This document shows positions 477 through 34,612 of a DNA stretch of 64,000 nt, piece by piece. Source of the DNA: Ignavibacteriota bacterium (GTDB lineage Bacteria > Bacteroidota > Ignavibacteria > UBA10030); contig CAVSHO010000011.1 of NCBI GenBank assembly GCA_963727825.1, forward strand, positions 128,001-192,000. Reading direction: 5' to 3'. Under the pieces are notes generated by a model. It worked only from the letters and a program-made list of their open reading frames with translations. It had not been told where the DNA came from and made no database searches. How positions within the stretch are numbered: the stretch's first letter is position 1; each line of letters opens with the position of its first letter. The position numbers were made by a program, and so were the translations under genes.

Positions 477-550
477 TGCGCCCGAGGCGATTCGAACGCC
501 TGGCCTACAGCTCCGGAGGCTGTCGCTCTATCCAGCTGAGCTACGGGCGC
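477..550 (-). tRNA. tRNA-Arg(CCG), intact
   Basis: Cloverleaf GCGCCCG...CGGGCGC-A, anticodon arm ACAGC-CT CCG GA-GCTGT, GTTCGAAT T-loop. Confidence 0.95.
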
Positions 551-768
551 AAGTTAAAATCCGTTATTTTCTACATTCGCCTTGTTCGAGTTGAGTGAAG
601 TTTCGTTTTTATTTCACTCTGCAAGTGCTTAAAAAAGTACTCAATCTGCCACGAATAAAAAACGCCGAGCGAAACGAGGCTTCCGGTCTCAAAACACTTG
701 GCGTTCTACTCTTTCGAGTAAATTTCTTTTTGTTATCTTCGGAAGCATGTTTCTTTAAGTTCGATATT

Positions 769-797
769 AATATACGAAAAGAGGGAGGAGAATACAA
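769..797 (-). promoter_or_regulatory. Element-supplied sigma70-like promoter for tRNA-Arg(CCG)
   Basis: TTGTAT-17bp-TATATT upstream of the leader conserved with island 2. Confidence 0.55.
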
Positions 798-997
798 GAG
801 GGTCTAATTGAGGCAATTGGACTCAGATAATTTCAAAAACTTACCTTTTTGTAACAATTCCTGATTAGAAAATTTCTTAAAACTTAGTTTTCCTCTTTTG
901 TTTTCAATACTTTTTCAATTTTGTTGCTGCTCAAAATATTTTTTTGTTTTAGCTGTCAAACGCTATTATATGGCTCCCTTTTAGATACTTCTCTGCT

Positions 998-1260
998 GTT
1001 TTCGTACTGTTTTTTGTGATTTTTCGTACTTTTTTTTCACTTTTTCGTACTTTTTTTTCAATGATAATCCATACTCTTTGTTCTCCATTCCTTATTAGGA
1101 ACTTTGACATTGACATTGCCTAAGGGAAAACGTGTCTAAGTCAAAGTGGTTAAGGAAAAAAGAGAGAGATAGACAAGAATTGTGTACCTATCTACTATCT
1201 TACTTTGACATTGACATCTTTCTGTATAGGGATTGTCAAAGTGTCGAAGTGTCAAAGTGA
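998..1260. repeat. Short iteron-like repeats, putative origin of island 1
   Basis: TTTTCGTACT x3; TTTGACATTGACAT x2 facing TGTCAAAG/TGTCGAAG x3, next to the helicase 3' end. Confidence 0.45.
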
Positions 1261-2596
1261 GTAATAGCCATTTTTCGTTTTTTTCAATATTCCAGTATCG
1301 TTAGCTTTCTTTAACAATCGGTCAATTGTGCGTTCATTTGTACTCTAATGGCTTGCATCGCTCCTGAATTTCCTTTCGTGAAAGCTCAGTTGCATCACCA
1401 AAGATGCTCTTAAAATCAATGCTTTCTTGTGCTGTCTGTGTTTCCATTGCAATATGTTCTCCTTCGTCTGTTTCACCTTCATCCTTGAACCACAGATTTT
1501 CTGGGTCAAGCGAAAGCAATCTACACTTTCTCATATCATCCGATATATGTCTTCCTTTTAGAGGTTTGATAATCCTTTTTCCCTCATTGGATGACGAACG
1601 TCTGATTTGTAATGTAGTGTCTGCGCTACCACCAAAAACATTGGAGCCTCTCATCTGGTCATTGTGCATACGTTGATATTGTGAACCTTTCTTGGTGTGA
1701 TGAACAATCAACACAGCAAGCCCGTATCTATCCCGTAGAGTCATGAATTGCCTCATCAATGCTTTCATCTGGGAACTGTCATTCTCATTTTTGTTGTCAT
1801 AGGTAAAGTAGAGGCAATCTACCACAATCAAGCAGGGTTTTTCTTGTTGGCAGGTCTCATTCAAGGTCTCCCAGCAATTATCAAGTGCAGGTACTTCTTT
1901 AGGAATAATTATGTTTGAAATATCGCCAAGAGCTGGGAGTCTATCGACCATCTTTTGCAATCTCCGTGCAAAATCAGGGAAAGACAACTCATTATTTAAA
2001 AACAATACTTTGCCATGCTTTTCAATATCGTATGAAAGCCATTGCTTAGCACCTACCGCAATAGAGAGAGCAAGATTCATTGCAAGCAAGCTTTTTCCAC
2101 AACCTTCTTCACCCATCAAGAAATTTACTGACATGTCAGAAATAAGATTTTTAATAAGGAACGATTCTTTTGGTATTTCCATCATGGCAATATCCAGAGC
2201 AGTAAAATTCTCGAATTGGAAACACTGATTGTCTTTTGAGTAGGAAGAATTCAAGAGAGTCGTATTTTTTTCTTCTGATTCAATAGCAATCGGCTTATGA
2301 TTCATCAATCTAATAGCCGCCTCCCTGAACCCTCCATTCAAGGGGACAGCGGTATATGTAATATCATTAATCACGCTTGTTTGCTCTGGAAGATGTTCCA
2401 AGCATGCTTTAATGTCTAAAAGTGTGCTTGGTTTCTTCATTTCATCGTTCAAAGATTCAAACAGTTTTCTGTATTCCGGTAATTCAAAAGCATCACTGTT
2501 AAACCCTTCAGGCAATTCTTCAAATGTAGAGGGCATAAGTAGTAAGGTTGCCAAAACCTGCCGTTCTGCCATTTCTCTCCGTTCCATCACACTCAT
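1252..2596 (-). CDS. AAA_25/RepA-type helicase with DnaB-like N-terminus; frameshift near 1338
   Basis: Walker A GEEGCGKS, Walker B LIVVD, IVHHTKK. ORF stops at 1334, but removing one A restores NERTIDRLLKKA...GYYSL to 1252. Confidence 0.75.
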
Positions 2597-3009
2597 TTGT
2601 GTACCTCAAACAAATCACCTTGACTGTGTAGTTGTTTCTCATAGTCCAAAGATTTCTTTTCCCCCCATAGGTCGAATGGAAGAAATACTTGGGTATCACC
2701 TGACTTTTCATATGTGAACACTTTCCCATAATTAAGGAGATACATTTTTGTTGTGAAGAGTTTCTGACCGCAATACTCGACACAAATCCATTTAAAATCG
2801 AAGCGTTGAAGCAATTCAAGATTCACACCAAGAGAATTGGTCTTCCGGTGCAAGTGTTTCTCCTTTCGTTTACAAAGGAATGTTCCTTCTCCAGCTTTGT
2901 CTAACTTGCCAACATAACGAGTCTCGAATGGTAAACGAAGTTCCACCGTCCAAATGCTCGATAATTTTGTTGGACTCAGGAAAATATTTTGTATATTGAA
3001 TTGTAGCAT
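2593..3009 (-). CDS. Conserved small island protein (homolog at 32144-32567)
   Basis: ORF overlapping the helicase start; visible similarity to the island 2 protein. Confidence 0.7.
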   Translation of the reverse strand: MLQFNIQNIFLSPTKLSSIWTVELRLPFETRYVGKLDKAGEGTFLCKRKEKHLHRKTNSLGVNLELLQRFDFKWICVEYCGQKLFTTKMYLLNYGKVFTYEKSGDTQVFLPFDLWGEKKSLDYEKQLHSQGDLFEVHK

Positions 3010-3265
3010 AACAAAGTCCTTTCTGGATTTTAACGGGCTGAATCAAGGTCTGAACTTGAACAGCCCGTTTTTGTTACCTCGACGGTAACAAAATAAAAAG
3101 CCAATAATGAGAAGAAGAACCGCCAAGTTCCTTCTCGCTATCGGCTTCAAAAAAGCATTTATTATGTAAGCGGTTCTTTTGCACGCTTACAATTTATATT
3201 AATATAGTTCTATTCTTTAGGAAGAACACTTCCAAAAAAGGGAAGAACGCTTCCCCAATATTCAA

Positions 3266-3877
3266 CTAATCAACAATCGGCTTTGCCTTTCTTTTTTCAT
3301 TTAAGTGTCTTTTGCGATATTGCTTCTCAAAACTATCTCTATTGAAACGATATTTCAGAGCAACTTCATCAAGCGCTGAAGTCTGCTTGTAACTCTTCGT
3401 ACTCACCAAATCATCTACCTCTTCAAAATGCTTAGTTTCAAATTTCAAATTTGCTACTGGTCTATTATGAAGAAGATTTTCCGTCTTTTCTATTCTTTCA
3501 ATAAAGAATTGTCTGAACTGTCTTCCGTCTTCCTCATTCGGAAAGTTTACTATTTCTCCAGCTTTGTTTGCGTGCCGACATTCATCTGCAAGGAATGCAA
3601 CCCCTCTTTCAAAACATTCTTCTGCGACAAAATGCAAATCGTAAATATTCCTAAATACAACGTTTCCATTTTTTTTTATCAAGACTAATGGTTTCGTACT
3701 ATCGACGTTATAAACGTGATAATCGACTTTCAATTTTTTTTTCCATGCTTTTTTTTTATCTAAAGAACGGATAAACCTAATAAGTTCACGACCATGCTCA
3801 TAAAGAATGTCCCAGGTTTTCGCATTAATATCTATTTCTCGAAATTCCTTAATATACTCGTCACTCCATTGTTTCAT
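3266..3877 (-). CDS. Hypothetical protein, possible C-terminal HTH
   Basis: 203-aa ORF with RBS; C-terminal ALDEVALKYRFNRDSFEKQY looks HTH-like. Confidence 0.55.
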   Translation of the reverse strand: MKQWSDEYIKEFREIDINAKTWDILYEHGRELIRFIRSLDKKKAWKKKLKVDYHVYNVDSTKPLVLIKKNGNVVFRNIYDLHFVAEECFERGVAFLADECRHANKAGEIVNFPNEEDGRQFRQFFIERIEKTENLLHNRPVANLKFETKHFEEVDDLVSTKSYKQTSALDEVALKYRFNRDSFEKQYRKRHLNEKRKAKPIVD

Positions 3878-4061
3878 TGCAAATTCCTTTCTTTATTTCC
3901 TTTTACCTTTTTCACCTTATTACAAAAACAGAAAGCCCCAAGCGTCCGGTATAGGCTTCGCCAAAAGCCTTTCTTAACGCTCAGGGCTATCAATCTTCTC
4001 AATGAAGAGAAGTAAATCCTGTATTTTGTGTTGGCGAATTTCTACCGGAGAAAAAAATAAA

Positions 4062-4781
4062 TCAATTTATTTTCTTATAAAGTTTTGAATCAATTACATC
4101 TGCGTTCAACCAACCAAAATCAGTATATTTAGTGGCAGATTCAGAATAATCAGTACGCTTAAAGTATGTATCATATCGGTTCCAATTCTTAATCCATCCA
4201 TGTAATTCTATTTTTGCTTCATTAAATTCGTTAGCACATAGAGTGTTTATAAGAGATAATTCATTCCTTCCGTTATACTTTTTGATTATCATTCTTGCTG
4301 TATCAGGATTCGTAGTAAAGTTATAAAGTTGGAATGCTTGAAGAATTTTTTCTCGTCTATCTTGATTTTCGTAAGATAAGGTTGATTCATTTGAATAATT
4401 GTTCGATAAATAATTATCCATATCAAATAGATAAGATTCATTGTTTAATGCAAATTCCAAAAGATAGTTGAGTCTGCGTATTTCATTCACATAAATTCTC
4501 CTAAGAGAATCTTGTCCATATTTTTCAAAGTAGATTAATTTTTGTTCTAACGAATCAATAAAATATCCTCCACGATGTGCTTCTGTAACCATAAAACGCT
4601 TTTGTGTCAATTGATTCTCATATATATCTCCAACATCAACTTTCTGAAACCATGTGATATTTTCATACAGCCATTGACCACCTTGTATCGCAAGTGAGAT
4701 GCAATATGCGATTGCAACCATACCGAGGAAGGAGAATATTAATATTTTTGCTTCCCTCATGTTCATCTTACTAAATGTCAT
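4062..4781 (-). CDS. Hypothetical membrane-anchored protein
   Basis: 239-aa ORF with an N-terminal hydrophobic helix. Confidence 0.6.
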   Translation of the reverse strand: MTFSKMNMREAKILIFSFLGMVAIAYCISLAIQGGQWLYENITWFQKVDVGDIYENQLTQKRFMVTEAHRGGYFIDSLEQKLIYFEKYGQDSLRRIYVNEIRRLNYLLEFALNNESYLFDMDNYLSNNYSNESTLSYENQDRREKILQAFQLYNFTTNPDTARMIIKKYNGRNELSLINTLCANEFNEAKIELHGWIKNWNRYDTYFKRTDYSESATKYTDFGWLNADVIDSKLYKKIN

Positions 4782-4809
4782 TTTCCCATTTTTGAGACAG
4801 CTTGTATTT

Positions 4810-5163
4810 CTAAAACCATCTGGTCACTAAAACACCGCTTGAATCATAGGTCATAGAGTTAGGCGTTATGCTAACATTAAATATTGTTGAAGAAGTACCA
4901 CCAGATTGTAGCGTGCCAACTTTCCACCCTATCATTGGGGTGGCATTCCATAATATATATATATTTGTAATTGGTATCGAAGCATTGTTTTTTACTAACC
5001 AGATATGTGCGCTTCCATCCAGCTTGGTTACCGTATCTCCTATACATGTAACTGTAATCGAGTAACCTGTTGTTGGCTTTTGCGCGTTAGTCTGCTCTAC
5101 TGGATTGCTCTTTTTACATCCAAGCAATAGTATTAATGGAATTACTAAATATAGGTGTTTCAT
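4810..5163 (-). CDS. Putative lipoprotein
   Basis: Signal peptide ending in lipobox LLLG-C, followed by KK. Confidence 0.7.
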   Translation of the reverse strand: MKHLYLVIPLILLLGCKKSNPVEQTNAQKPTTGYSITVTCIGDTVTKLDGSAHIWLVKNNASIPITNIYILWNATPMIGWKVGTLQSGGTSSTIFNVSITPNSMTYDSSGVLVTRWF

Positions 5164-5325
5164 AATATCTCTTAAAAATTAATGGTTCTGTATGTGGAAT
5201 TATACATATATATCTAAGAAAATCAATTAAACCCTCTTCAAATCACGTCACATTCTTCTATTAAGAAATAGAAAGCCGACCTCTTTGGGTCGCCTTGAAG
5301 CCTTAGCAATATTGCATTTGTCTTA

Positions 5326-6528
5326 CTATCTCAACAAAATCAGTTTTTTCGTTTCTGTAAATGAACAAGCTTGCAGACGATAGAAGTAGATACCACTCGA
5401 CATATTTGCAGCATTCCATTGACGCGAATAACTTCCTGCCGACATTTCTTCTGAGACGATAGTTGCAATTTCTCTTCCCATAATATCAAACACCTTCAAC
5501 GAGACAAAAGATTTTGATGGAAGATTAAATGAAATAGTTGTTGTAGGATTAAACGGGTTTGGATAGTTCTGGTCAAGACTGAAATGTGTCGGTAAGTCGG
5601 TGGAGAACCTCTCTACTGAGGTCATCTCTAACAACGGTCGTCTCCAAACGCCGAATAAATCAGTCCCAGCAAAGAGATTCGTGCCGCTTACGACAAGAGA
5701 CATGACACCATTGTAAGTAAGTCCTTGAGACTCCCAATTCCAGCTTGTGCCGTTATTAGTCGAAAGAAAGACGGCGTCGCCACCACAAGTCCCAGCAAAT
5801 AGATTTGTACCGGAGACAGCAAAAGCAGTGACAGGAAGAAGTTCCAATCTAAAACCGTTATTGACCGCAGTCCAGCTTGTGCCGTTGTTGGAAGAACGAT
5901 ACACACCACCATCGGTTCCTGCAAAGATATACGTGCTGGAGTTGGCAAGAACACGGACAGTCAAATTATTCAAACCAGTATTAACCGCAGTCCAACTCGT
6001 TCCGTTGTTAGTGGAAAGAAAGACGCCACCATTATTAGTCCCTGCAAAGAGATTCGTGCCGCTTACGGCAAGAGCATAGACAGTAGCATTAATTGTTCCG
6101 ACTTTAGTCCAGCTTGTGCCGTTGTTGGTGGAAAGGAAGACACCGCTACCTGCAGCAAAGAAATTTGAACCGGAAACGGCAAAACTCTGAACTCCATAAC
6201 CGTTTGGAATCCCATTGTTCACAGCGTTCCAACTTGTGCCATTGTTAGTGGAAAGAAAGACGCCACCGCCACCAGTCGCAGCAAAGAGTTTCGTGTCAAT
6301 AACGGCAAAAGCAAAAACGTTCGTTAATCCATCATTAATCCAGCTTGTACCGTTGTTGGTGGAAAGAAAGACGCCGTCGCCATAAGTCCCAGCAAATAGA
6401 TTTGTACCGGAGACGGCAAAAGCAGTGACATAAGTATTCGTGGAGACATGAATCCATTGGGAAAACGAAATATTCGGATTGATAAAGATAGCAAGTAGTA
6501 ACCAATAATGTCTTATTGAATTTTTCAT
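5326..6528 (-). CDS. Secreted BNR/Asp-box beta-propeller protein with T9SS type A C-terminal domain
   Basis: Start MKNSIRH; six S[TS]NNGTSW repeats; C-terminal QNYPNPFNP...GIYFYRL...KKLILLR. Confidence 0.88.
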   Translation of the reverse strand: MKNSIRHYWLLLAIFINPNISFSQWIHVSTNTYVTAFAVSGTNLFAGTYGDGVFLSTNNGTSWINDGLTNVFAFAVIDTKLFAATGGGGVFLSTNNGTSWNAVNNGIPNGYGVQSFAVSGSNFFAAGSGVFLSTNNGTSWTKVGTINATVYALAVSGTNLFAGTNNGGVFLSTNNGTSWTAVNTGLNNLTVRVLANSSTYIFAGTDGGVYRSSNNGTSWTAVNNGFRLELLPVTAFAVSGTNLFAGTCGGDAVFLSTNNGTSWNWESQGLTYNGVMSLVVSGTNLFAGTDLFGVWRRPLLEMTSVERFSTDLPTHFSLDQNYPNPFNPTTTISFNLPSKSFVSLKVFDIMGREIATIVSEEMSAGSYSRQWNAANMSSGIYFYRLQACSFTETKKLILLR

Positions 6529-6840
6529 ACGAAAGCTCCTTGCTATTATTGGTAAGAAGGCTGATAGGCATTTGTATTTTACTAAATACCAAAAATACAA
6601 GCAACTACTTTCAAGAGTGTACTTTTACAAAAAAAATATGAGTTATACACTTTCCGTATGAGGTGTATATTTATAGGCTTTACCCCTTGCTTATTAAAAT
6701 CTGGAGAGTTCTTTAACCCCTCCCCCTATTTTTTCAACTATATGCCGTTTAAAACATACCGCCTTTGGGGTTCGACGCTTTTCACTACTCACCCCAGTTA
6801 TTGCCATTATCTTTCCAAATTTGCATTAAGACTGACTTTC

Positions 6841-7927
6841 TCAGTTCATAGATACCGAAATCTTGTTCACCTCAGCATGTAGGCTCTCAGTCTGTAAATG
6901 GCTGTATATCTGAGTTGTTTTTACGTCTGAGTGTCCAAGCAAGTCTTTAATCACATATACAGAAGTACCATCCTGAGCAAGCCACGAAGCAAACGAGTGC
7001 CGGAGTGAATGAAAATGTATATCCTGATTGCTGAGGTTCGCAAGTCTCACATAGCGCTTGAACAAGTGTGTAATCCAATCGGCAAAGATTTGCTTGCCGT
7101 TCATTGTGAACACATAGCCGGAAGCATCTTTACCTTGTTTTGCTTGCAGAATGTAGAGAGCGGTATCGCTCAATGGTATTATTCTCATTCTACCGGCTTT
7201 TGTGCGAAAGGTTGGAGTGCTTTCGATGTATAGCAACTTCCGGCTGAGGTCAATACTATTCCATTTCAGGTTCACTAATTCCCCTCTACGTAGTCCGGTG
7301 CTCACAGCAAAGATAATGATTTCCTTCAACCAGCTTTCTTCAATCACACCTAACAATTTTTGAAATTCAAGTTTCGTGAGGAATGTCGGTTTATTCTCCG
7401 GTACCTTCACCAGTTGAATTTTGAATGGATTGCTTTCGAGTAGCTTCCACCTTACGGCTGTATTGAAGAAAGCCCTCAGCGTTCGGAGTTCGATATTTAC
7501 AGTTACCGGCCTCACAATTTTCTCTATCTCTGTTTTGTGTCCATCTTTAATCATTATTACCACCTTGACAGGCTTTTGTCTCTCTGTTTTGTATGCATCA
7601 AAATGCTGAGGTGTATAATTGGCAAGCGGAAAGTCTCCGATGTATTCTATAAAATTCCGGAGAGATGCCTTGTAGATTGCTACAGTGCCTTTAGAGAAGC
7701 TTCCTTCAGCATAGGCAAGGAAAGGTGCTGAGAAATTCAGATAAGAGCATATGCTTGGCTTTCTGCCTTCGTTCGTATTCATCACTTTTGAAAGTTTGAA
7801 GGAACTTGAGAGCATCGGTTTTGTATTGGCAATGAGTGGAAACCCGTTTCCTTTTCCCTTGTTCATTGAAATAGAAAAGGTAATACGTGCCATTGGAATG
7901 TTTGGAGAGGAACATCGGAAGCCCCAT
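6841..7927 (-). pseudogene. Tyrosine integrase, frameshifted near 7721-7723 (real lesion or assembly error)
   Basis: ORFs 7706-7927 and 6841-7893 together align end to end with the intact paralog at 28610; TGLRRGE, HSLRH, LLGH, TQIY. Confidence 0.85.
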
Positions 7928-8005
7928 TTTCTGAGGCAGAAGGTGCTTAAATAAGTACTTACGAAGAAAAGAAATGCAGAAATTGAAATGCTTTGAAGGA
8001 AATTT

Positions 8006-8060
8006 ACGCCTGGCCTACAGCTCCGGAGGCTGTCGCTCTATCCAGCTGAGCTACGGGCGC
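8006..8060 (-). repeat. att site: 5' 55 nt of tRNA-Arg(CCG)
   Basis: Identical to 496-550; ends at the first T of the T-loop. Confidence 0.93.
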
Positions 8061-8082
8061 AAGAATGCTGGTTCACTAATCT

Positions 8083-8111
8083 AATGTATTGAAGTTTTTA
8101 AAGAGATTCAA
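8083..8111 (-). promoter_or_regulatory. Probable original host tRNA promoter, now reading into the fragment and integrase
   Basis: TTGAAT-17bp-TACATT, 22 bp upstream of the fragment. Confidence 0.55.
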
Positions 8112-26498: not shown

Positions 26499-28038
26499 CT
26501 AATCCAACTCTAACATCACTACACATTTTGCCGGCAGGTTGACGTTGAGTATCCCTTTCTGTAAATGAGCTCCGGAAAAAGGCTTTATACTCACTTCTTC
26601 GGGCTTCCCAAAATCGTTATATGCATTCATTTTTTCAGCAGTAATGATTTCTCCGGAAACATTTTTCATTGAGGTGCCGAGTAATTCACAGCTTAGTTTC
26701 TTTTCTTTCACCGGATCTAAATTTGTTATGCTGATGTGTATCTTTCCGTTTTTATCCTTAGACGCTGAAACACTTAACGATTGTATTTTATCGGTTCCGT
26801 TAGAGTATTCTTCACTTATTAATTTGATAGGAAGCATTGTTGCTTCCTGATGCACTGAATACATTTTGAAGACATAATAGGTTGGAGTTAATACTATTTT
26901 GTCACCTTTCGTCAGGATTACAGACTGCAAGACATTTACCATTTGGGCAATGTTTGCCATCCTGACGCGGTCGCAATGGTTATTGAAAATATTCAGATAG
27001 AGCCCAGCCGTCACGGCATCGCGCAGCGTGTTTTGCTGATACAGAAAAGCCGGATTGTCGCCCGGTTCTGTATCGAACCAGTTTCCCCATTCATCTGCAG
27101 TTAATGCAATTTTCTTTTCTGGGTCATAACGATCCATAATTGCAGAATGCTGATTCAGGTTTTCATCAACGACCACAGTCTTTTGCATCGGTACTGAACC
27201 ATTCACTCTCGTCAAAATTGACCGCTGACCCTTTCTTTGTCCAGTTATGGCAGATCGTATAATAATGATAAGAATATCCCTGAATGAGATCGCTGTATTT
27301 TTTTGTGGCTTTCATAACGGTCTCTGTCCAATTGAGATCATCCGAAGTACCGCCTGATAGAATTTTGAATTTGCCCGGACAGAAAGTGGAAAATTGTTTA
27401 AAAATATTTGAATAAAACTCTGGGGTCATATTACCACCGCATCCCCAGGTCTCATTTCCAATTCCCCAGAATTTCACTTTCCATGGCTCGCTTCGCCCAT
27501 TGATACGGCGCAGGTTCGCCATCGGACTGTCGTTGTTAGAATTTACATATTCCACCCAATCACGTGCTTCTTTTATCGTTCCACTACCAACATTGATGGA
27601 AAGGTACGGTTCGGCACCGAGTAATTCACAAAAATCTAAAAATTCATGTGTACCAAAGCTATTATCTTCTACAACTCCACCCCAGGTAGTATTGACGAAC
27701 TTCGGCCTTTTTTCGACTGGACCAATACCGTCCATCCAATGATATGTATCAGCAAAGCATCCTCCAGGCCAGCGAACAACAGGAACGTGGATGGCTTTCA
27801 GAGCATCCAGAACATCATTGCGAATACCGCGCGTATTGGGTATTGGTGAATTTTTACCTACCCAAATTCCGCCATAAATACATCGGCCTAAATGTTCTGT
27901 AAAATGTCCGTAAATATATTTGCTGATTGTTATTTTGCCAGAATCAGCATTTACAATCAAAGTATTCGTCGATTGCTGTGCATTAACTTTCAATGTAATA
28001 ATGAGGATGAGACAGCATAGAGTGATAATCTTTTTCAT
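26499..28038 (-). CDS. abfA: GH51 alpha-L-arabinofuranosidase, frameshift near 27190
   Basis: YGHFTEHLG, RWPGGCFAD and WGIGNE in one ORF; DEWGNW and MANIAQMVNVLQ in the next frame. Confidence 0.85.
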
Positions 28039-28173
28039 TATGTCTATATCTCCGTATTCAAAATTCATATAGATAGTATGGATTTTATCCTAATTGTAAA
28101 TATACATAACATATTAAAATCTTCCTATTAATTCTTAGACTTTTCTGAATTTGAAACGATAAAAATCAGTTTC

Positions 28174-28202
28174 TTGCTTCCGTTTTCATCGTTTCGTATA
28201 TT
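28174..28202 (+). promoter_or_regulatory. Probable original host promoter of tRNA-Arg(ACG)
   Basis: TTGCTT-17bp-TATATT. Confidence 0.55.
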
Positions 28203-28224: not shown

Positions 28225-28462
28225 TTTGCACCCATAGTTCGAAAATTGCCTGCGAATGCATTTTATGAGCAGAAGCAATTTTCAGAATCTCCCGCTTTTC
28301 AGGATTCCGCTTTTGAAGCGGGATTCAAAAAGCGGAACCGCCGGTATTTGGCGGGACTTAATAATATTGTATTAGTTTGCACCCATAGCTTCCAAATCGG
28401 CCTGCGAGTGCAACGAGCAGCAGCCGATTTGAGAATCCCGTTGAACGAAGTGATAACGGGAT
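28225..28462 (+). repeat. Two tRNA-Arg(ACG) 5'-fragment units fused to nested hairpins
   Basis: TTTGCACCCATAG at 28225 and 28376, each followed by a hairpin, AGAAT and a TCCCG...CGGGA stem. Confidence 0.78.
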
Positions 28463-28609
28463 CTTAATTTGATCTTTGCACCCATAGCTCAATTGGATAG
28501 AGCGGCAGCCTACGGAGCTGTAGGTTGGGGGTAAAAAGCTTTCAAAACATTTCAATTTCTACATTTCCTTCCTTCGTGGGTACTAATTTGGTGACCTTCT
28601 GCCTCAGAA

Positions 28610-29692
28610 ATGGGGTTTCCAATGTTCCTCTCCAAACATTCCAACGGTACCTATTATCTGTATTATTCCAACGAACAAGGCAAGAGAAAAAAGGTATCTA
28701 CTCATTGCCAATATAAAACCGATGCGCTCCAGTTTCTGCAATCGTTCAAAAGTGATGAACACGAACGGAGACAAAAAGCAAAGCATAAACTACTTTCAGA
28801 ACTCCAGAATGATTTTCTTCCTTATGCAGATGCTAACTTTAGCAAGGGAACGGTAGATATTTACAAAGCAGCACTAAAGAACTTTGTTTGCATTGTCGGT
28901 GATTTACCACTTTCATCATACACTCCTCAGCACTTCGATACTTACAAAACAGAGAGACAAAAACCTGTCAAGGTGGTAACGGTCAAAGATGGACATAAAG
29001 CAGAGACAGAGAAGATTGTAAAGCCAGTAACTGTAAACATCGAACTCCGGACGTTGAGGGCTTTCTTCAACACAGCTGTAAGGTGGAGACTACTCGAAAG
29101 CAATCCATTCAAAATTCAACTCGTAAAGATACCGGAGAATAAGCCAACATTCCTCACAAAGGAAGAATTTCAAAAGCTTCTTAATGTGATTGAAGAACAT
29201 TGGTTGAAGGAAATCATTATCTTTGCAGTAAGCACCGGATTGCGTAGAGGCGAATTAGTGAACCTAAAATGGAATTGTATAGACCTCAGCCGAAAGTTGC
29301 TGTATATCGAAAGCACTCCCACGTTTCGCACGAAGTCCGGTAAAATGAGAATAATACCGTTGAACGATACAGCTCTCTACATATTGCAAGCAAAGCAAGG
29401 AAAAGATACTTCTGAATATGTTTTTTCGATGAACGGCAAGCAAATCTTTGCCGATTGGATTACGCACTTGTTCAAGCGGTATGTGAGACTTGCGAACCTC
29501 AGCAATCAGGATATACATTTTCATTCACTCCGGCACTCGTTTGCTTCTTGGCTTGCTCAGGACGGTACTTCTGTTTATGTGATTAAAGACTTGCTCGGAC
29601 ATTCAGACGTAAAAACAACTCAGATATATAGCCATTTACAACCTGAGAGTTTACATAAAGAAGTGAATAGGATTTCGATACTTATGAATTGA
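28610..29692 (+). CDS. Tyrosine integrase, intact; close paralog of the island 1 integrase
   Basis: R-H-R-H-Y catalytic motifs; long identical stretches with 6841-7927. Confidence 0.93.
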   Translation: MGFPMFLSKHSNGTYYLYYSNEQGKRKKVSTHCQYKTDALQFLQSFKSDEHERRQKAKHKLLSELQNDFLPYADANFSKGTVDIYKAALKNFVCIVGDLPLSSYTPQHFDTYKTERQKPVKVVTVKDGHKAETEKIVKPVTVNIELRTLRAFFNTAVRWRLLESNPFKIQLVKIPENKPTFLTKEEFQKLLNVIEEHWLKEIIIFAVSTGLRRGELVNLKWNCIDLSRKLLYIESTPTFRTKSGKMRIIPLNDTALYILQAKQGKDTSEYVFSMNGKQIFADWITHLFKRYVRLANLSNQDIHFHSLRHSFASWLAQDGTSVYVIKDLLGHSDVKTTQIYSHLQPESLHKEVNRISILMN

Positions 29693-29732: not shown

Positions 29733-29882
29733 TTAATTTGGATGTGATGGAGGTGGAAAAATATCATCAATTAATGGTCTAAGCACATATCCAGCGGCAA
29801 GACCAACAATAAGTAATTGTCCACCCGATGGAAGAAAAAAGAATATAATAACGAGAATAATAAATATTACCATTTTTGCCAT
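29733..29882 (-). CDS. Small membrane protein (49 aa)
   Basis: GGAG RBS before MAKMVIFIIL...; two hydrophobic segments. Confidence 0.5.
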   Translation of the reverse strand: MAKMVIFIILVIIFFFLPSGGQLLIVGLAAGYVLRPLIDDIFPPPSHPN

Positions 29883-30151
29883 TTTAATTTCTCCATAGAC
29901 ACTATTATGCGGCTTTCTTATTTTATCGTTTGACAACCAGCAACTCAAACTGACGCAGACCACATTGAAGGTACTGACTGCTGTTGGCAATGGCAATGAA
30001 TAAATATCATCAATCATAACACAGATGGCTCAATACGACTAGGAACAATTCAATTGTTTGTTGGGATTATTGGGATTTTTAAGAAAAACAACATCCATTA
30101 ATACCATCAAGATGGTAGTATCAGATTAGGTACAATGCGAGTGTTTTATCT

Positions 30152-30763
30152 TTACCCAAAATTATTTCTTAATATTTTAATAAAATATCCAAGAAAGTTA
30201 CCAGATAGCTTTCTTTCTTTCCATTGACTAAGTCCTGCGTTAAATGCTTCTTTTATTTTACCTTCTTCATACTTATCAATTACGTTAGAGAAGAATTTTC
30301 TAAAAGCGAATTCATCAAATTCTACTGCTTCTATTTTTAATATTTCCACCATTTGATCGATAATAACATTATTTCCATTATTAACATTATTGTTTGTCAC
30401 CGTTTTGTTCTCCGTCTGCTCTCCGTTCTGCTCTCCACCAATTTGATACCGTTTCCAATTTCGTATTGATATTATTGTGGTTACGTTATCAATTTTGGTA
30501 TCCACCATTTGCCGTGTTTCGAGATACGTAAGAAATTTTCTCACTGTTTTGAAATCCCATTTCCACCTATCCGCGAGAGATAATTGAGAATAGCATAATT
30601 CACCTGGCGTAATATGGATTTCATTACCGCGAATAATTACCATGTGCTCCCTATGGCTTGCCAATAATAGTAAATCTATCCAGGCTTGCAATCGTGTAAA
30701 ACGTTCGCTGAAATAAAGATCGTTCTCCATTATCTGGCGATGTAATTTTATATATCCTTGCAT
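30152..30763 (-). CDS. Phage-type replication initiator / replisome organizer
   Basis: GYIKLHRQI...AWIDLLLLA...LADRWKW...IRNWKRYQ; internal iteron-like GGAGAGCAGA-type repeats near 30408-30440. Confidence 0.8.
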   Translation of the reverse strand: MQGYIKLHRQIMENDLYFSERFTRLQAWIDLLLLASHREHMVIIRGNEIHITPGELCYSQLSLADRWKWDFKTVRKFLTYLETRQMVDTKIDNVTTIISIRNWKRYQIGGEQNGEQTENKTVTNNNVNNGNNVIIDQMVEILKIEAVEFDEFAFRKFFSNVIDKYEEGKIKEAFNAGLSQWKERKLSGNFLGYFIKILRNNFG

Positions 30764-30767
30764 AAAA

Positions 30768-32123
30768 TCAGACGAGGTATTGTTTAGGTGACCAAGATTT
30801 AGATTGATAATCTCGAATTTCGGTTTCTTTCAAAGTTAAGGTTTCTGGGTTAAATAATAGACCAACTTTGTTATTTGTCAAATTCAAATTACGTCCCCAT
30901 TCTACAAATAGCTCGATATAAGATGGTTCTTCTTCAATCGGCTTCCATAAAAATATTCCGCAATCAGCATCATTAAAAAGTCTACCTGTGTCTCTGATGT
31001 CGGATGGAGAGGGTTTCCTATCAATCCTCATTCCTATTTGTTTACTTAAAACAGCCGCGATAAGAATTATTGGAATAGATAAATCAGTGGCTAGACCCTT
31101 CAACCTGCTAACAAAGGCATTAATCTCGTTTACTCTGTCCTTATTTGCGACCTCAATTAATTGCAAATAATCAATGATGAGTAATTTTATTTTTTTCTCA
31201 TGAAACATCTTTTGTGCAATAATAAATACTTTCTCTGGATTTGCTGAACCATCCCGAATAATCAAATCTTTCCCTTTTGATGTTTCTTGGAACTGGAGTA
31301 AACGGGTCAGACGATCCATAGGGTTCTGACCACTATGTACTCCTGCATATCGTTTTGCAATGTCAACGGCACGCATTTCCATTGAAATAATTCCAACAGA
31401 ATGTCCCTGAGTTGAGTTATAATATCCAATTTGGTTAGATAAAAAAGATTTGCCAATTTTGGCTTCAGCTGCAATACAATATAGACTACCCTGTTCAAAG
31501 CCATGAATGATTTTATCCAGCTTTGATATACCAGATGGAAGTCTTACAATTTCACCTGTAATCTCTTTCTCTGTTTCGTTGATCGCTTCGATAGTAGCAT
31601 CATCAAGGGTTATATATCCTTTCAGATCATGATCTTTCACGGCAAAGGAAATTAATTCTTGTGTTGCTAATTCAATTATAGTGCTAATTTCTTTCCCATC
31701 ATTTATCTCTTTATTGATATGGAGAAGTAATGTCCTCAATTGTGTTTTTCGAGCTTCCTCTTGAAGAAAACGACAATTAGCTGATAAGCTATTATGAACA
31801 CCTTCCTTTGTAATAAGTGTCGAGAGTTCAACGCTTCGTAGAACTAGATACTCCAGAACCTGTCGTTCATCAATAAATTCAGGATATATTTTTAAGTAGT
31901 GAGACAACATCAAACTATTCTGTTGTAAATAATTTTGTACTTCAATAAGATTAACTTCTTTTTGTAGTTCTACTAAGGCTTTGCACACTCCAAAGAGAAT
32001 AGCACAATCGTGTTGCAGAAAATCTGTTTCATTAATAACCGTATCAGCTTTAAGTACCGATGAGTTACCCTTGTAGAGTAACTCACCGATAATTTCTTCT
32101 TCAACTAGCTTTCTTGTGATCAT
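30768..32123 (-). CDS. DnaB-like replicative helicase (element-borne)
   Basis: SGISKLD, AEAKIGKS, ISMEM, LIIDYLQLI, PSDIRDTG. Confidence 0.85.
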   Translation of the reverse strand: MITRKLVEEEIIGELLYKGNSSVLKADTVINETDFLQHDCAILFGVCKALVELQKEVNLIEVQNYLQQNSLMLSHYLKIYPEFIDERQVLEYLVLRSVELSTLITKEGVHNSLSANCRFLQEEARKTQLRTLLLHINKEINDGKEISTIIELATQELISFAVKDHDLKGYITLDDATIEAINETEKEITGEIVRLPSGISKLDKIIHGFEQGSLYCIAAEAKIGKSFLSNQIGYYNSTQGHSVGIISMEMRAVDIAKRYAGVHSGQNPMDRLTRLLQFQETSKGKDLIIRDGSANPEKVFIIAQKMFHEKKIKLLIIDYLQLIEVANKDRVNEINAFVSRLKGLATDLSIPIILIAAVLSKQIGMRIDRKPSPSDIRDTGRLFNDADCGIFLWKPIEEEPSYIELFVEWGRNLNLTNNKVGLLFNPETLTLKETEIRDYQSKSWSPKQYLV

Positions 32124-32143
32124 ATATATCCTTGGAATTGTTA

Positions 32144-32567
32144 TCAGGTACTGAAAGAAATTTCTATAGTTGTACTTACAGTTGGAGATAAGGGTTTATT
32201 CGGTTGTTCTTCTGTAGATATTTCTATCCCAAATTCAGATATTGAAAGGAATATCTGGCGTTCGAGATGGTTATCTTTGAAGTGAAGGAACTTCCCTTTT
32301 TCTAGTATATGTATTCTCGTTGTAACAAGCGGTTTAGAAAAGGGGATATGTACTACAACAAACTTAAATGTACCTGTACTTCATCAAGTCATAATTAAAA
32401 CCGTAACTACCTCCAAATTGCCGGTACTTATGCCGATCCGGATTGCGTTCACAGTAAAACGCAATACCCTGAATGCGTCCTAAAATCCGATGACTTTTAT
32501 ATTTTTTATCAGGTAGTAAAAGATGGACTGTTCCATTGGGAGCAATTCTAATATTAGATGTAAACAT
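32144..32567 (-). CDS. Homolog of 2593-3009, frameshift near 32375
   Basis: Removing one base extends the 67-aa ORF with GTFKFVVVHIPFSKPLVTTRIHILEKGK...RQIFLSISEFG. Confidence 0.65.
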
Positions 32568-32731
32568 TGTATAACTCCTAAAAATAGAAAACCGCTGAAG
32601 GGAAATTATGATGAAAAACCCTCAACGGTCTCTTATTTCCAATATGTAAGTATTTTAGTATCATAATTTATTTTGATACAAGATACTTCCACGAGGAAGA
32701 CTTAACTATTTTATAAATAAATTTAAGTTTT

Positions 32732-33334
32732 TTAAGTTTGTTTCCTCTTCTTTTTATATCCTGTTAATGAGGCGTATTGTCTCAGTTTATGATACATAGG
32801 ATTTTTATCTTTGAATTCCTCTTTAGAAGGCATATCTGAAGGGCATAATTCTAATCCAATATTATGTAGAACTACAGCGGGGATTGTTTTTCCCTTAACG
32901 AGATGTCTTTTTTCACATGCAGTCTTGAATTTATCTATAAAGTCGTCTTGATCTATTATATCAGAATTAGTTTTATTTTTGTTTGCATCATTTGACGATG
33001 GAACGGTAAGAATGCCGGATAATGAAGGTTCGATAGAAGACTGTATTTGTATTTTCTCATCTTCCTTACGTCGAAGTTTTTCAAAAGCGTATTCTTTTGC
33101 CCTTACTTCCGATAATTTTTCTTCATGTTCAAGTAATTTCAATTTATGTATCAACTGCATTTTTTTCTCTTCAAGCTTAGGTATTTCTGGATTTACAAAT
33201 GGACTTTGGCGCTTCTTTTCGATTTCATCATCTATTGCTGAAATCTTAGCCAGAATTGATTTATTTTCATCATCGCCATCCATAATTAAATCTTTACGAT
33301 TGAAAATTAAATCATTAAATTTAATCTTTTTCAT
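32732..33334 (-). CDS. Hypothetical coiled-coil protein
   Basis: 200-aa ORF in the same position as 3266-3877 in island 1. Confidence 0.6.
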   Translation of the reverse strand: MKKIKFNDLIFNRKDLIMDGDDENKSILAKISAIDDEIEKKRQSPFVNPEIPKLEEKKMQLIHKLKLLEHEEKLSEVRAKEYAFEKLRRKEDEKIQIQSSIEPSLSGILTVPSSNDANKNKTNSDIIDQDDFIDKFKTACEKRHLVKGKTIPAVVLHNIGLELCPSDMPSKEEFKDKNPMYHKLRQYASLTGYKKKRKQT

Positions 33335-33337
33335 AGA

Positions 33338-33925
33338 CTAAAAATCTTTCTTCAAGTATTCGTTGGCTATTCTCATATTTTGATAATTAATTTTAAGCCC
33401 ATAATTCACGCCTCCTGGAAATACTTCCAGAAATATTGCACAAGTGTCTTTCCCTTTATTGACAAAGCACCATTGAGCCTCAGTTGTCTCTCGATCAATA
33501 ATATTCAATTCTTGGCAACTATCGCTTTTGAAAAGTGCAACGTCTACTTCTGGTTTCCCATATTTCTTGGAAATTGCGCTCTTAATCGACCACAACTTCC
33601 GGATAAAATATTCGCATTTAATATCGTCAAGAAATACCATGCCAGCAAAAAAACTTTTGTTATGAAAATAAATTGCAAATTGATTGACTTTTTCACTCGC
33701 AAACATGCCGCCATAAAAAACCATTATTTCCTTATTGCTTTTTACAGTATCAAAATGGACACCGTCCCGTTTAAGCATTTTCGATTTAACAGTTTCTGAG
33801 TTGTCGCCCCACCTCAAATCAAGAAATCCATTAAGCGTCTTTCCTTGATCTTGTGCTACTAGTTCTTGATTAGTTAAGAATTCCCCCAAAAATAATATTG
33901 AAATTAGAAAAATAATCTTGTTCAT
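33338..33925 (-). CDS. Hypothetical exported protein
   Basis: AGGAGG RBS, signal peptide, GFLDLRWG...KKYGKP. Confidence 0.7.
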   Translation of the reverse strand: MNKIIFLISILFLGEFLTNQELVAQDQGKTLNGFLDLRWGDNSETVKSKMLKRDGVHFDTVKSNKEIMVFYGGMFASEKVNQFAIYFHNKSFFAGMVFLDDIKCEYFIRKLWSIKSAISKKYGKPEVDVALFKSDSCQELNIIDRETTEAQWCFVNKGKDTCAIFLEVFPGGVNYGLKINYQNMRIANEYLKKDF

Positions 33926-34294
33926 ATAAAGTTACCTCCTACAAAATGGTATTAAGCACAAGAATATTTATTGTGCAAATATACTAACTTCTTTAATAAA
34001 ATTTTGAGAAAAATATTTGTCGACTATTATTTAGAGCTCTATACCCCCTAAATGTCCCTCTACCCCCCGTCGTTATCTGAGTAATTTTCATTTTTGATAT
34101 TTTAAATATACAGATATTCAAGATAGAGTATACTTTTGAAGCGATCATTAAGAGCATTAATTGTCTTCATATCCATCAACTAAAGCAATCATTGAATTAT
34201 GGTTTATACCCTATACACGAAGTTGGATGAAAGAAAAAAATATTCTGACGGTGACGAACTAAAAGGACAGGGATAAACCTCATATAAGCTCCAC

Positions 34295-34323
34295 TTGCCT
34301 TCCGTTTCTTTGTTTTGTAAATT
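34295..34323 (+). promoter_or_regulatory. Element-supplied promoter for tRNA-Arg(ACG)
   Basis: TTGCCT-17bp-TAAATT, in the position equivalent to 769-797. Confidence 0.55.
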
Positions 34324-34330
34324 GACATTG

Positions 34331-34499
34331 ACTTAAAGAAACATGCTTCCCAAGATAGTAAAAAGAAATTTACTCGAAAGAGTAGAACCTCAAGTGTTTG
34401 GGAATTGGAAGCTCCGTTTCGCTTGAGGTTTCTTATTCGTGGCATTGGTGACTATTTTGGGCACTGACAGAGTGAAATAAAATCGAAACTTCACTCAAC
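34331..34499 (+). repeat. Conserved tRNA leader shared with island 1 (590-760, minus strand)
   Basis: ACTTAAAGAAACATGCTTCC, AAAAAGAAATTTACTCGAAAGAGTAGAAC and CGAAACTTCACTCAAC are identical in both islands. Confidence 0.85.
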
Positions 34500-34538
34500 A
34501 CGATAGAAGAAATTGTCGAAAAAAGATTGTTTTCTTTT

Positions 34539-34612
34539 GCACCCATAGCTCAATTGGATAGAGCGGCAGCCTACGGAGCTGTAGGTTGGGGGTTCGACTC
34601 CCTCTGGGTGCA
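34539..34612 (+). tRNA. tRNA-Arg(ACG)
   Basis: Cloverleaf; GCAGC-CT ACG GA-GCTGT; followed by a terminator at 34618-34644. Confidence 0.95.

Follow-up and report, generated by a model that had tools for sequence, protein, structure and literature searches.

tRNA genes and the islands upstream of them

In the window, a 64,000-nucleotide stretch of an Ignavibacteriota bacterium contig, ARAGORN identified tRNA-Arg(CCG), tRNA-Asp(GTC) and tRNA-Arg(ACG), and a further gene, tRNA-Arg(TCG) at 39887-39961, that was unoccupied by an island. At the first three, an island containing one tyrosine integrase gene (int) was located 5' of the intact tRNA gene. Each island was bracketed by the full tDNA and a cognate 5' fragment in the same orientation, with the fragment 5' of the tDNA; the fragments were exact at the Arg sites and diverged at Asp. 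The Arg-CCG island contained the following features.

476-550, minus strand: rebuilt intact tRNA-Arg(CCG) (ARAGORN; Rfam tRNA, 67.3 bits)
496-553, minus strand: attR copy of the 58-nt identity block (exact repeat)
623-642, minus strand: putative P-arm arm-type sites, a pair of 8-nt direct repeats whose starts are 12 bp apart (read from the sequence)
654-761, minus strand: structured RNA with a GNRA hairpin, a pseudoknot and a terminator-like stem plus U-run (covariance model R1, 120.5 bits, E 1.4e-20; consensus structure; covariation)
769-797, minus strand: element promoter TTGTAT-17-TATATT, 218 nt 5' of the tRNA, aimed at the RNA and the tRNA
1334-6600, minus strand: cargo (Pfam, PHROGs), with a primase/helicase-like AAA_25 protein (1334-2596), four ORFs of unknown family and a T9SS-tailed BNR-repeat protein (5326-6600)
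6841-7927, minus strand: tyrosine integrase, frameshifted (PF00589 at 6841-7893, E 2.5e-35)
7928-8005, minus strand: spacer (P' arm), 78 nt, with two arm-type repeats (7941-7960) and a GAAA-loop hairpin right before the start codon
8006-8063, minus strand: displaced tRNA-Arg(CCG) 5' fragment, nt 1-55 plus 3 nt (attL) (exact 58-nt repeat; Rfam tRNA, 34 bits)
8083-8111, minus strand: likely displaced host promoter TTGAAT-17-TACATT, 22 nt before the fragment (pattern scan)

A second candidate for the displaced host promoter, TTGAGA-16-TATCAT, was found at 8139-8112. The int gene had a +1 frameshift near 7716, an extra base compared with the Arg-ACG copy, and translation from 7927 ended after 73 codons. 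Because its int is frameshifted, this island may be fixed in place. The Asp island was organised differently.

20434-20462, plus strand: possible native tRNA-Asp promoter TTGCTT-17-TAACTT, ahead of the Asp fragments and of the form seen in the native tRNA promoters of the loci
20565-20605, plus strand: decayed tRNA-Asp 5' fragment, nt 1-41, at the far end of the island (91% over nt 3-37)
21119-24371, no strand assigned: cargo (Pfam), with a DUF7793-like ORF, a DUF3800 protein and a 365-aa ORF of unknown family
24574-25623, minus strand: tyrosine integrase, divergent from the tRNA (PF00589, E 6.4e-32)
25676-25704, plus strand: island-side promoter TTGAAA-17-TATATT, 15 nt before tRNA-Asp (sigma-70 scan, 10/12 matches)
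25720-25795, plus strand: rebuilt intact tRNA-Asp(GTC) (ARAGORN; Rfam tRNA)

The Asp fragment had 5 mismatches in 41 positions (by eye) and ended within the anticodon loop. The GC content of the island was 0.31-0.35, compared with about 0.39 in the flanks, and its integrase was 35% identical to the Arg-ACG integrase (BLASTP). The Arg-ACG island contained the following features.

28174-28202, plus strand: displaced native host promoter of tRNA-Arg(ACG), TTGCTT-17-TATATT (identical promoter at the empty site of a relative)
28225-28474, plus strand: two "mini-fragment" units, each tRNA nt -3 to 12 followed by two hairpins, between the native promoter and the 55-nt fragment
28475-28532, plus strand: displaced tRNA-Arg(ACG) 5' fragment, nt 1-55 plus 3 nt (attL) (exact 58-nt repeat; Rfam tRNA, 32 bits)
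28533-28609, plus strand: spacer (P' arm), 77 nt, with two arm-type repeats (28578-28597) and a hairpin before the start codon
28610-29692, plus strand: intact tyrosine integrase (PF00589, E 3.6e-38; 2261 relatives)
29733-33925, minus strand: cargo (Pfam, PHROGs), with a DnaD-like helicase loader (30152-30763), a DnaB-like helicase (30768-32123) and three ORFs of unknown family
34295-34323, plus strand: element promoter TTGCCT-17-TAAATT, 215 nt 5' of the tRNA
34330-34437, plus strand: structured RNA with a terminator-like end (R1, 119.4 bits; fold z-score -2.39; covariation)
34447-34466, plus strand: putative P-arm arm-type sites, a pair of 8-nt direct repeats whose starts are 12 bp apart, matching the pair at 28578-28597 (read from the sequence)
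34536-34613, plus strand: attR identity block and rebuilt intact tRNA-Arg(ACG), the gene itself at 34539-34613 (ARAGORN; exact repeat; Rfam tRNA)

A repeat search showed the two exact 58-nt direct repeats to be 496-553 = 8006-8063 and 28475-28532 = 34536-34593, each holding tRNA nt 1-55 and 3 upstream bases. As the original prediction had it, all three islands rebuild the 5' part of the tRNA, with a decayed 41-nt fragment at Asp, and both Arg fragments end at nt 55. The three regions are small integrative elements placed by a tyrosine integrase into tRNA genes with 5' polarity, a layout that is known and uncommon. The 5' portion of the tRNA is contained in attP: nt 1-55 in the two related Arg elements and about nt 1-40 in the Asp element. 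Once the element is integrated, the intact tRNA consists of an element 5' part and a host 3' part with element DNA upstream, and the host promoter is left with a dead 5' fragment.

Although their target tRNAs differ, the two Arg elements have in common int (87% identity), the 78-nt spacer and a 176-nt right-end block (84%). The motif pair at 623-642 of the Arg-CCG element was found again at 7941-7960, adjoining int, and the arm-type motif varied in step from one Arg element to the other. These repeats are putative binding sites of the integrase.

Promoter displacement at Arg-ACG and, probably, at Arg-CCG

The Arg-ACG site was empty in a syntenic relative (L064), where TTGCTT-17-TATATT lay 27 nt before the tRNA. 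The empty site corresponded to the DNA left of the fragment joined to that right of the tRNA, not to the intervening DNA, and both the mini-fragment units and the 176-nt block 5' of the rebuilt tRNA-Arg(ACG) were missing from it. The predicted promoter swap is real at Arg-ACG, because the native promoter of L064 matches the DNA upstream of the fragment, not that upstream of the rebuilt tRNA. The same comparison, available for Arg-ACG only, also answered whether the element promoter could be native host sequence: the element block was missing and the native promoter differed.

The empty site bears on whether ordinary 3'-restoring islands have been misread, the element then lying on the opposite side of each repeat and native DNA preceding the intact tRNA. 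Restoration of the 3' end is the rule, as in 3760 of the 3919 islands of Islander (PMC4383910), and an intact tRNA lay directly 5' of int in 28/80 relatives of this integrase. However, the duplicated pieces are 5' parts (nt 1-55), the right-end block is common to elements in different tRNAs, and the match of the L064 site to the outer DNA alone refutes this explanation at Arg-ACG. We consider it extremely improbable overall.

The displaced host promoter at both Arg sites had been predicted to point through the fragment into int. The geometry was found, with int co-oriented downstream and its ATG 77 nt past the fragment at Arg-ACG (28533-28609) and 78 nt at Arg-CCG (8005-7928), but the Arg-ACG promoter lies about 275 nt before the fragment. 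No terminator was predicted between host promoter and int in either Arg island, and the leader between them gave fold z-scores of +0.08 and +1.89, no better than shuffles. In the integrated state the path of the host tRNA promoter would run into int. Host-promoter drive of int is inapplicable at Asp, because int sits at the other end and is divergent.

Read-through from the host promoter would fit the geometry of the Arg islands and has a published precedent in ICEKp1, in which int is driven by the host tRNA promoter (PMC13023037). In ICEKp1, ICEclc and ICEEc1, the integrated int is described as lying downstream of the host tRNA promoter, a far-end promoter faces int after excision, and leader stem-loops attenuate expression (PMC13023037). 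Judged from the DNA sequence, the integrated-state geometry was matched at both Arg islands and not at Asp. Those elements restore the 3' end and have a full tRNA before int, whereas here the int transcript would begin with only part of a tRNA (nt 1-55). Unlike in that group, the far-end promoter here also faces the rebuilt host tRNA. In the excised state, int would be faced by the element's own promoter and leader; such a far-end promoter is present in the Arg elements, but a terminator-like hairpin comes after it.

The islands could instead be decayed, immobile relics, with an int-promoter geometry that has no present function and tRNA copies that may be redundant in the genome, of which 64 kb are in view. 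In favour of this are the frameshift in the Arg-CCG int, the decay of the Asp fragment and the frequent occurrence of relics such as tandem remnants and mini-fragments. L064 carried an orthologue of the Asp int with 79% nucleotide identity, about as divergent as the host flanks (73-78%), which suggests long residence; the TTGAAA-17-TATATT motif was also present there, 16 nt before tRNA-Asp, and no tRNA-Asp fragment was found in L064. Against this, each Arg repeat pair matches at 100% across its 58 nt, int is intact in the Arg-ACG island, and the Arg-ACG site varies between genomes, being empty in L064 and holding a tandem with a remnant in L001; both states point to ongoing turnover. Decay to relics is an improbable account.

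A structured RNA between the predicted element promoter and the tRNA

A 17-bp-spaced promoter motif was present ahead of each rebuilt tRNA, as predicted, but those of the Arg elements were 215-218 nt away. The sigma-70 scan called a promoter near the rebuilt tRNA only at Asp; none was called at the two Arg sites, where the distal promoters also remained uncalled. On the host side, TTGNNN-17-TANNNT occurred within 80 nt upstream in 6/22 5'-type and 9/27 3'-type cases, compared with 2.2% of random windows. Such a motif was found within 80 nt on 0/10 element sides, and at 102-232 nt upstream (16-18 bp spacer) on 10/10.

The predicted Arg element promoter would first drive a structured RNA of about 108 nt, and a terminator-like hairpin lies about 100 nt before the tRNA. 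An equivalent promoter was present in 7/7 seed elements of the RNA module. The consensus fold showed compensatory change in 8/20 pairs. In the alignment (A7), 89% of cells were paired and 21/27 pairs varied on both sides, counts inflated by fitting to the hairpins of the model; the pseudoknot helix, which was not fitted, was 77% paired. Cells with changes on both sides numbered 50, compared with 14.9 in shuffles, and 0/500 shuffles reached this value. Over 1.3 Mb, covariance model R1 gave 12 matches; apart from one weak match, they lay at the right ends of elements or at tandem junctions.

Rfam returned only tRNA matches over positions 1-45000 and the RNA fitted no family at gathering score; at E up to 10, the best overlapping match was HrrF (16 bits, gathering score 77). 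The terminator scan did not call the end hairpin, the loop of which exceeds the 3-8 nt that the scan permits. The conserved promoter, the covarying stems and the G+C-rich stem followed by a U-run are features of a leader or small RNA that ends in an intrinsic terminator.

The arrangement of the Arg attP resembles that of P4. In P4-type tRNA islands, attP lies just 5' of int, and int is co-oriented with the tRNA. The order here was promoter, RNA of about 108 nt with the terminator-like hairpin, two arm-type repeats, tRNA-sense core, two arm-type repeats and int. P4-type elements carry the 3' part of the tRNA, whereas the islands here carry the 5' part.

In the integrated state, only promoters inside the element could transcribe the rebuilt tRNA. 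Most likely, transcription would start at the distal promoter and read through the structured leader, and RNase P would process the transcript. The element promoter as a plain tRNA promoter was rejected; the structured RNA with its terminator-like end intervenes, and the module also occurs in the 3'-type element L004.

The distal promoter and RNA could also form a self-contained element gene, such as a copy-control, immunity or int-regulating small RNA ending at its own hairpin, with the tRNA transcribed from a weak, unrecognised proximal promoter overlapping the arm-type sites. The hairpin and U-run resemble a full intrinsic terminator, and in the 3'-restoring element L004 the same module lies 5' of a displaced pseudo-copy; since that tRNA copy is dead, the module is not there for the tRNA. 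In addition, both Arg elements have a weak TTGAGT/TTGGTG-17-CAGAGT motif past the terminator. However, the -10 box of this candidate is poor, it is not conserved in L029, L028 or L002, and no element side had a canonical promoter within 80 nt of the tRNA. We regard a self-contained RNA gene as rather unlikely. Against read-through, a strong terminator-like hairpin stands between the element promoter and the tRNA; transcription may pass poorly beyond it, and a proximal promoter may have escaped recognition.

The proposal that element control of the tRNA stabilises the element was unsupported. Precise excision would rejoin the native promoter and the tRNA and restore the native gene, and the layout therefore penalises imprecise loss only.

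Polarity of tRNA restoration in the integrase family

Residues R212, H305, R308, H331 and Y340, of catalytic type, were invariant in an alignment of 24 integrase sequences. The best phage and plasmid matches to this integrase had less than 30% identity. Among 80 related loci, a 5' fragment in sense lay just ahead of int in 20 and an intact tRNA in 28, and a divergent intact tRNA was found in 4 more, giving a 5' layout in 20 to 24/80; these categories were assigned from BLAST comparisons with a library limited to 70 tRNAs, in which fragments of other tRNAs would be missed.

In 8/20 of the 5'-fragment loci, an intact tRNA was located 6.6-10.4 kb downstream; the identity blocks stopped at nt 54-59, 66 or 37, and the far tRNA had 7/7 acceptor pairs in 8/8. 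L004, L014 and L033 showed the opposite polarity: the intact copy was beside int, and in the far copy (nt 4/9 to 75) the acceptor 5' strand was defective or absent. Within 10 kb, 25/28 of the loci in which int follows an intact tRNA yielded no far fragment, and acceptor pairing was poor in 2/28 (L054 and L055).

An integrase phylogeny with att mapping, the check originally suggested, was run on related loci, and 5' restoration did not hold as a property of an integrase clade. The polarities were interspersed on the tree: no fewer than 13 changes are required for the 5' type, and well-supported branches force 8 of these. L004 (3' type) was the sister of L029 (5' type) with a support of 99.

An element with "reversed target orientation" was reportedly described by Zhao and Williams in 2002. 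In Islander, 159/3919 islands have a 5' tDNA fragment (PMC4383910), compared with 3/3 islands in the window and the 20 to 24/80 related loci here. As far as they are described, these islands and the Zhao and Williams element resemble ours in the tyrosine integrase, the tRNA target, the position of the island 5' of the regenerated gene and the displaced 5' fragment; in them, as here, the upstream sequence must come from the element. The dusA-specific integrases, compared by description and not by sequence, target a protein-coding gene and belong to another integrase family.

The pTN3-like integrases of Thermococcales use the 5' half of a tRNA gene as attB, and an element promoter expresses the recombinant tRNA (PMC8371274). 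The islands here are similar in targeting the 5' tRNA part and in providing an element promoter for the tRNA, in our case a predicted one. The pTN3-like integrases are archaeal and "suicidal", with att inside the int gene, whereas here the hosts are bacterial and int is whole, starting 77-78 nt past the fragment. Identity with this SSV-type group was rejected on the evidence of the unsplit int ORF at 28610-29692, which starts 77 nt beyond the fragment.

The structural account, comprising 5'-restoring integration, promoter displacement and labile polarity, is in our view probably correct. The regulatory steps, read-through into the tRNA and host-promoter drive of int, are predicted from the sequence and are put forward tentatively, with somewhat more doubt than confidence. 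The long tRNA-like segment of attP, centred on the anticodon arm, could reach either end of the gene. In this integrase family the 5' layout is frequent and often reversed, and the choice between 5' and 3' restoration, as read from the tree and the att sites, is evolutionarily labile.

The three islands and their target tRNA genes

Four tRNA genes were identified in the window with ARAGORN:

476-550, minus strand, tRNA-Arg-CCG
25720-25795, plus strand, tRNA-Asp-GTC
34539-34613, plus strand, tRNA-Arg-ACG
39887-39961, minus strand, tRNA-Arg-TCG

According to the original prediction, the islands at Arg-CCG, Asp and Arg-ACG rebuild the 5' part of the target tRNA and lie upstream of the intact gene, and the repeats and tRNA calls agreed with this. 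Exact 58-nt direct repeats were found at Arg-CCG (496-553 and 8006-8063) and at Arg-ACG (28475-28532 and 34536-34593). Both consisted of tRNA nt 1-55 plus 3 bases upstream, which confirmed that the two Arg fragments, the displaced 5' pieces of the tRNA, end at nt 55; the Rfam tRNA model scored them at 34 and 32 bits. Both Arg intervals were situated upstream of the intact tRNA gene, and the tyrosine integrase gene (int) was located 77-78 nt past the fragment in the same orientation as the tRNA, as expected from the predicted distance of about 78 nt. At the Asp site, a diverged 5' piece (20565-20605, approximately nt 1-41, with 91% identity across nt 3-37) was located 5.1 kb upstream of tRNA-Asp, and int (24574-25623) adjoined the intact tRNA-Asp in divergent orientation. 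The GC content was lower, at 0.31-0.36, within all three island intervals.

The int genes of the window belong to the Phage_integrase family. The Arg-CCG and Arg-ACG integrases were 87% identical to each other, and the Asp integrase was 35% identical to both. Relative to its Arg-ACG paralogue, the Arg-CCG int contained one extra base near 7716, giving a stop after 73 codons, which may reflect a pseudogene or an assembly error. Protein P0006, encoded on a 5974-nt contig and 100% identical over 80% of int, was considered as a circular form and set aside as a frameshifted, uninformative copy. The cargo of the islands consisted overall of replication modules and unknowns, with a DnaB-like helicase and a DnaD-like loader at Arg-ACG, an AAA_25 primase/helicase-like protein and a T9SS-tailed BNR protein at Arg-CCG, and a DUF3800 protein at Asp. 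No virion genes were recognised in the three islands, which are probably small self-replicating integrative elements. The product of the BNR gene (5326-6600) was a secreted protein of BNR/sortilin-like repeats that carried a C-terminal T9SS sorting domain, and the gene contained internal DNA repeats with a period of about 111-126 nt.

Other features were observed around the islands. The region 9792-12773, which lies between the Arg-CCG island and core genes, contained a gene pair encoding an HTH protein (10525-10884) and an M78/ImmA-like peptidase (9792-10538) as well as an IS1-like transposase (11841-12773), and may be a further mobile region. Downstream of tRNA-Asp, a GIY-YIG nuclease ORF (25934-26203) ran at its 3' end into a copy of tRNA-Asp nt 38-51, and after it came a copy of tRNA-Asp nt 60-76 with a terminator (26215-26262, 73% identical to 25779-25826). 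Two more pieces consisting of a hairpin and a tRNA 3' end were found near 25860-25895 and 26290-26335, and the region 25796-26340 looks like a tiny 3'-side insertion at tRNA-Asp, or its relics. Two overlapping ORFs (27166-28068 and 26499-27215) made up an alpha-L-arabinofuranosidase gene (26499-28068) that is likely frameshifted. At 42273-44228 a 300-nt repeat occurred in three direct copies, with identities of 89-94% and spacings of 956 and 700 nt.

Restoration polarity across the integrase family

A total of 2261 integrase relatives were found in the database, the named ones coming from Ignavibacteriota or Bacteroidota metagenome-assembled genomes. In phage and plasmid collections no close relative was found, the best matches being 27-29% identical. 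One genome per species was scanned with a 24-integrase alignment and 80 loci, mostly from Ignavibacteriota, were kept. The sequence just upstream of int was classified by BLAST against 70 tRNAs from the loci and the window, together with acceptor-stem checks.

Table. Sequence just upstream of int in the 80 loci.
Sense 5' fragment (layout of the window Arg islands): 20
Sense intact tRNA: 28
Antisense 3' fragment (classical anticodon-loop layout): 18
Antisense intact tRNA (as at the window Asp site): 4
No recognisable tRNA sequence: 10

Among the 20 loci of the first class, eight also had the intact tRNA, 6.6-10.4 kb downstream. The identity blocks of these eight loci ended at nt 54, 55, 56, 57, 58, 59, 66 or 37, and all eight far tRNAs had 7/7 acceptor pairs. 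Where an intact sense tRNA preceded int, 7/7 acceptor pairs were found in 26 of the 28 loci, the remaining two having 5 (L054) and 4 (L055). Three of these 28 loci (L004, L014 and L033) carried a far copy spanning nt 4 or 9 to nt 75; its acceptor stem was defective in L004 and L033 and its first 8 nt were unrelated in L014, so these three elements are of the 3'-restoring type. No far copy was found within 10 kb in the other 25. A second, distant integrase-like gene (25% identity) was observed in L040 (19090-19971) and L004 (9374-9830), ending about 160 nt upstream of tRNA-Lys and reading towards it, so that the tRNA-Lys loci of these genomes appear to have an element on either side.

The original prediction had taken 5' restoration to be a property of the integrase clade. 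Since 5'-fragment islands make up only 159 of 3919 in Islander (PMC4383910), the 5' layout is enriched in this family; it is not fixed, as it required at least 13 changes on a maximum-likelihood tree of 83 integrases, with well-supported branches forcing 8 of these. The two window Arg integrases grouped with L001 and L003 in a clade of four that was entirely of the 5' type, nested in a clade of nine of which eight were 5'-type, and the 3'-type L004 was sister to the 5'-type L029 with a support of 99.

These layouts suggest that attP would hold a long tRNA-sense core, approximately nt 9-55, which could be extended to either the 3' or the 5' end of the gene, with the position of int after the core unchanged. 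Polarity may thus be a property of the extent of attP homology rather than of the enzyme. In addition, pairs of 8-nt direct repeats, 12 bp apart, were found downstream of the structured RNA described below and between the fragment and int. The repeat sequence changed in step between the two Arg elements, and the pairs are putative arm-type integrase sites.

Predicted promoters of the rebuilt tRNAs and of int

The original prediction also included a promoter swap at the target tRNA, which an empty site allowed us to examine at Arg-ACG. Locus L064 (RPQN01000023.1) shared synteny with the window to either side of the Asp and Arg-ACG genes, and its tRNA-Arg-ACG contained no island. TTGCTT-17-TATATT was located 27 nt upstream of this tRNA, and this native promoter was 97% identical over 32 nt to window positions 28174-28202, upstream of the fragment. 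The 176-nt block preceding the rebuilt tRNA-Arg-ACG (34330-34505) was missing from L064. Counterparts with 84% identity preceded the rebuilt tRNA-Arg-CCG (760-586) and occurred in three other elements. The leader of the rebuilt gene is therefore not native host sequence, and the swap at Arg-ACG was borne out. At the Asp locus, L064 carried an orthologous Asp integrase (79% nucleotide identity) with different cargo, and a search there for a far-end tRNA-Asp fragment detected none.

The native tRNA promoter in these genomes has the form TTGNNN-17-TANNNT. Within 80 nt upstream, this pattern was found on the host side in 6/22 cases before 5' fragments and 9/27 before int-proximal tRNAs (3' type), on the element side in 0/10 cases before rebuilt tRNAs, and in 2.2% of random 80-nt windows of the loci. 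A TTGNNN/TANNNT-type motif with a 16-18 bp spacer was present further away, at 102-232 nt upstream, on all ten element sides. A 17-bp-spaced promoter had been predicted ahead of each rebuilt tRNA. This was correct for the exceptional Asp site, where TTGAAA-17-TATATT lies 15 nt before tRNA-Asp in both the window and L064, but at the Arg sites the motif is distal, 218 nt (Arg-CCG) and 215 nt (Arg-ACG) upstream of the tRNA, with a structured RNA between. A generic promoter scan gave no call at either Arg site. Generic -35/-10 match scores did not separate rebuilt (mean 8.0) from native (7.95) or shuffled sequences (7.6) and were superseded by the family-specific pattern.

At both Arg sites the host promoter, fragment and int were co-oriented. 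No terminator was predicted between the host promoter and int, and the RNA of fragment plus spacer folded no more stably than shuffles. This geometry matches that of ICEKp1, in which int is driven from the host tRNA promoter in the integrated state and from a far-end promoter once the element is excised (PMC13023037); here, a truncated tRNA would head the int transcript. The Arg sites offer a natural test of ICEKp1-type promoter switching in a new form. The proposed expression of int from the host promoter has to be qualified, because the Arg-ACG native promoter lies about 275 nt from the fragment, with two mini-fragment units between, and the Arg-CCG int is broken; at Asp it cannot apply. The proposal that control of the tRNA promoter stabilises the element is weak, because precise excision rebuilds the native gene and the tRNA would be lost only by imprecise deletion.

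The mini-fragment units, in which the neighbouring tRNA's first 12-15 nt are followed by two hairpins, were observed at window positions 28225-28474 and 20477-20560 and in L019 (about 1160-1275), L009 (about 7290-7510) and L001 (about 9700-9860). At occupied sites they lay between the native promoter and the tRNA or fragment, and they were absent from the empty Arg-ACG site of L064. The first stem of the Arg units covaried across four genomes. The units may be leader repeats, miniature non-autonomous elements or scars left by earlier integrations; their spacers showed no similarity to the right ends of current-type elements, and an origin as relics of these was rejected. Immediately before the int start codon (conserved MFLSK), a short hairpin was observed at window positions 28598-28621 and 7938-7915 and in L001, L002, L004, L029 and L043. 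Its loop was mostly GAAA, its stems covaried between elements, and it may be a translational or attenuation element.

A structured RNA linked to attP

A conserved module of about 108 nt was found downstream of the promoter in seven elements. RNAalifold predicted a 5-bp hairpin with a GNRA loop, followed by a long stem and a U-run, and a pseudoknot pairing the 5' strand with the terminator loop was added to the model. With the pseudoknot, 88% of cells were paired in the seven seeds, with 18 double changes compared with 6.8 in shuffles (0/500 reached this value); when the pairing partners were slid, paired cells dropped to 34-52%. A covariance-model search of the window and the 80 loci gave 12 hits. 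In the resulting alignment, which was fitted to the hairpins with the pseudoknot left unfitted, 89% of cells were paired and both sides had changed in 21 of 27 pairs, with 50 such cells compared with 14.9 in shuffles (0/500). The fold z-scores of the window copies were -2.39 (Arg-ACG) and -1.39 (Arg-CCG). Alternative folds are possible, because in the minimum-energy fold of the Arg-CCG copy a long-range helix replaces the terminator stem.

A trans-acting antisense role, with the terminator loop pairing with the int translation start, was suggested by a 7-nt word common to the window elements. In L002 and L043, the loop covaried with the 5' strand of the RNA itself rather than with the int leader, and the internal pseudoknot is therefore preferred. 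A small ORF in the conserved block, 19-27 codons long in the window, was rejected, as it stopped after 7 codons in L003. No Rfam family matched the RNA, and literature on Ignavibacteria islands and attP-linked RNA yielded nothing on this system, which does not establish that it is unpublished.

The module also occurred in the 3'-type L004, about 100 nt before the displaced pseudo-copy, and at tandem junctions of L001, L028 and L060, and is thus a constant part of the attP left arm rather than a tRNA-specific device. In the tandem at the Arg-ACG site of L001 (8330-11029), a remnant fragment and the int start preceded the RNA module, which was followed by a second fragment with a full int.

Taken as a whole, these features could describe a polarity-free integrase family whose attP combines the long tRNA-like core, a promoter and the pseudoknotted, terminator-ended RNA as a switchable leader, gating the tRNA when integrated in the 5' mode and int when excised. 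We regard this complete reading as rather unlikely; if true, a mobile element would place an essential tRNA under the control of its own riboregulator. Follow-up is most worthwhile for the polarity switching and for the RNA linked to attP. The covarying, terminator-ended RNA is a concrete candidate for a regulatory RNA carried by mobile elements. Restoration of the 5' end, at about 4% of mapped tRNA islands, is usually regarded as a rare oddity, yet the 5' layout is common within this one bacterial integrase family and switches often with 3' restoration while the geometry of attP and int stays constant, a lability that bears on island-finding software and on integrases as tools.
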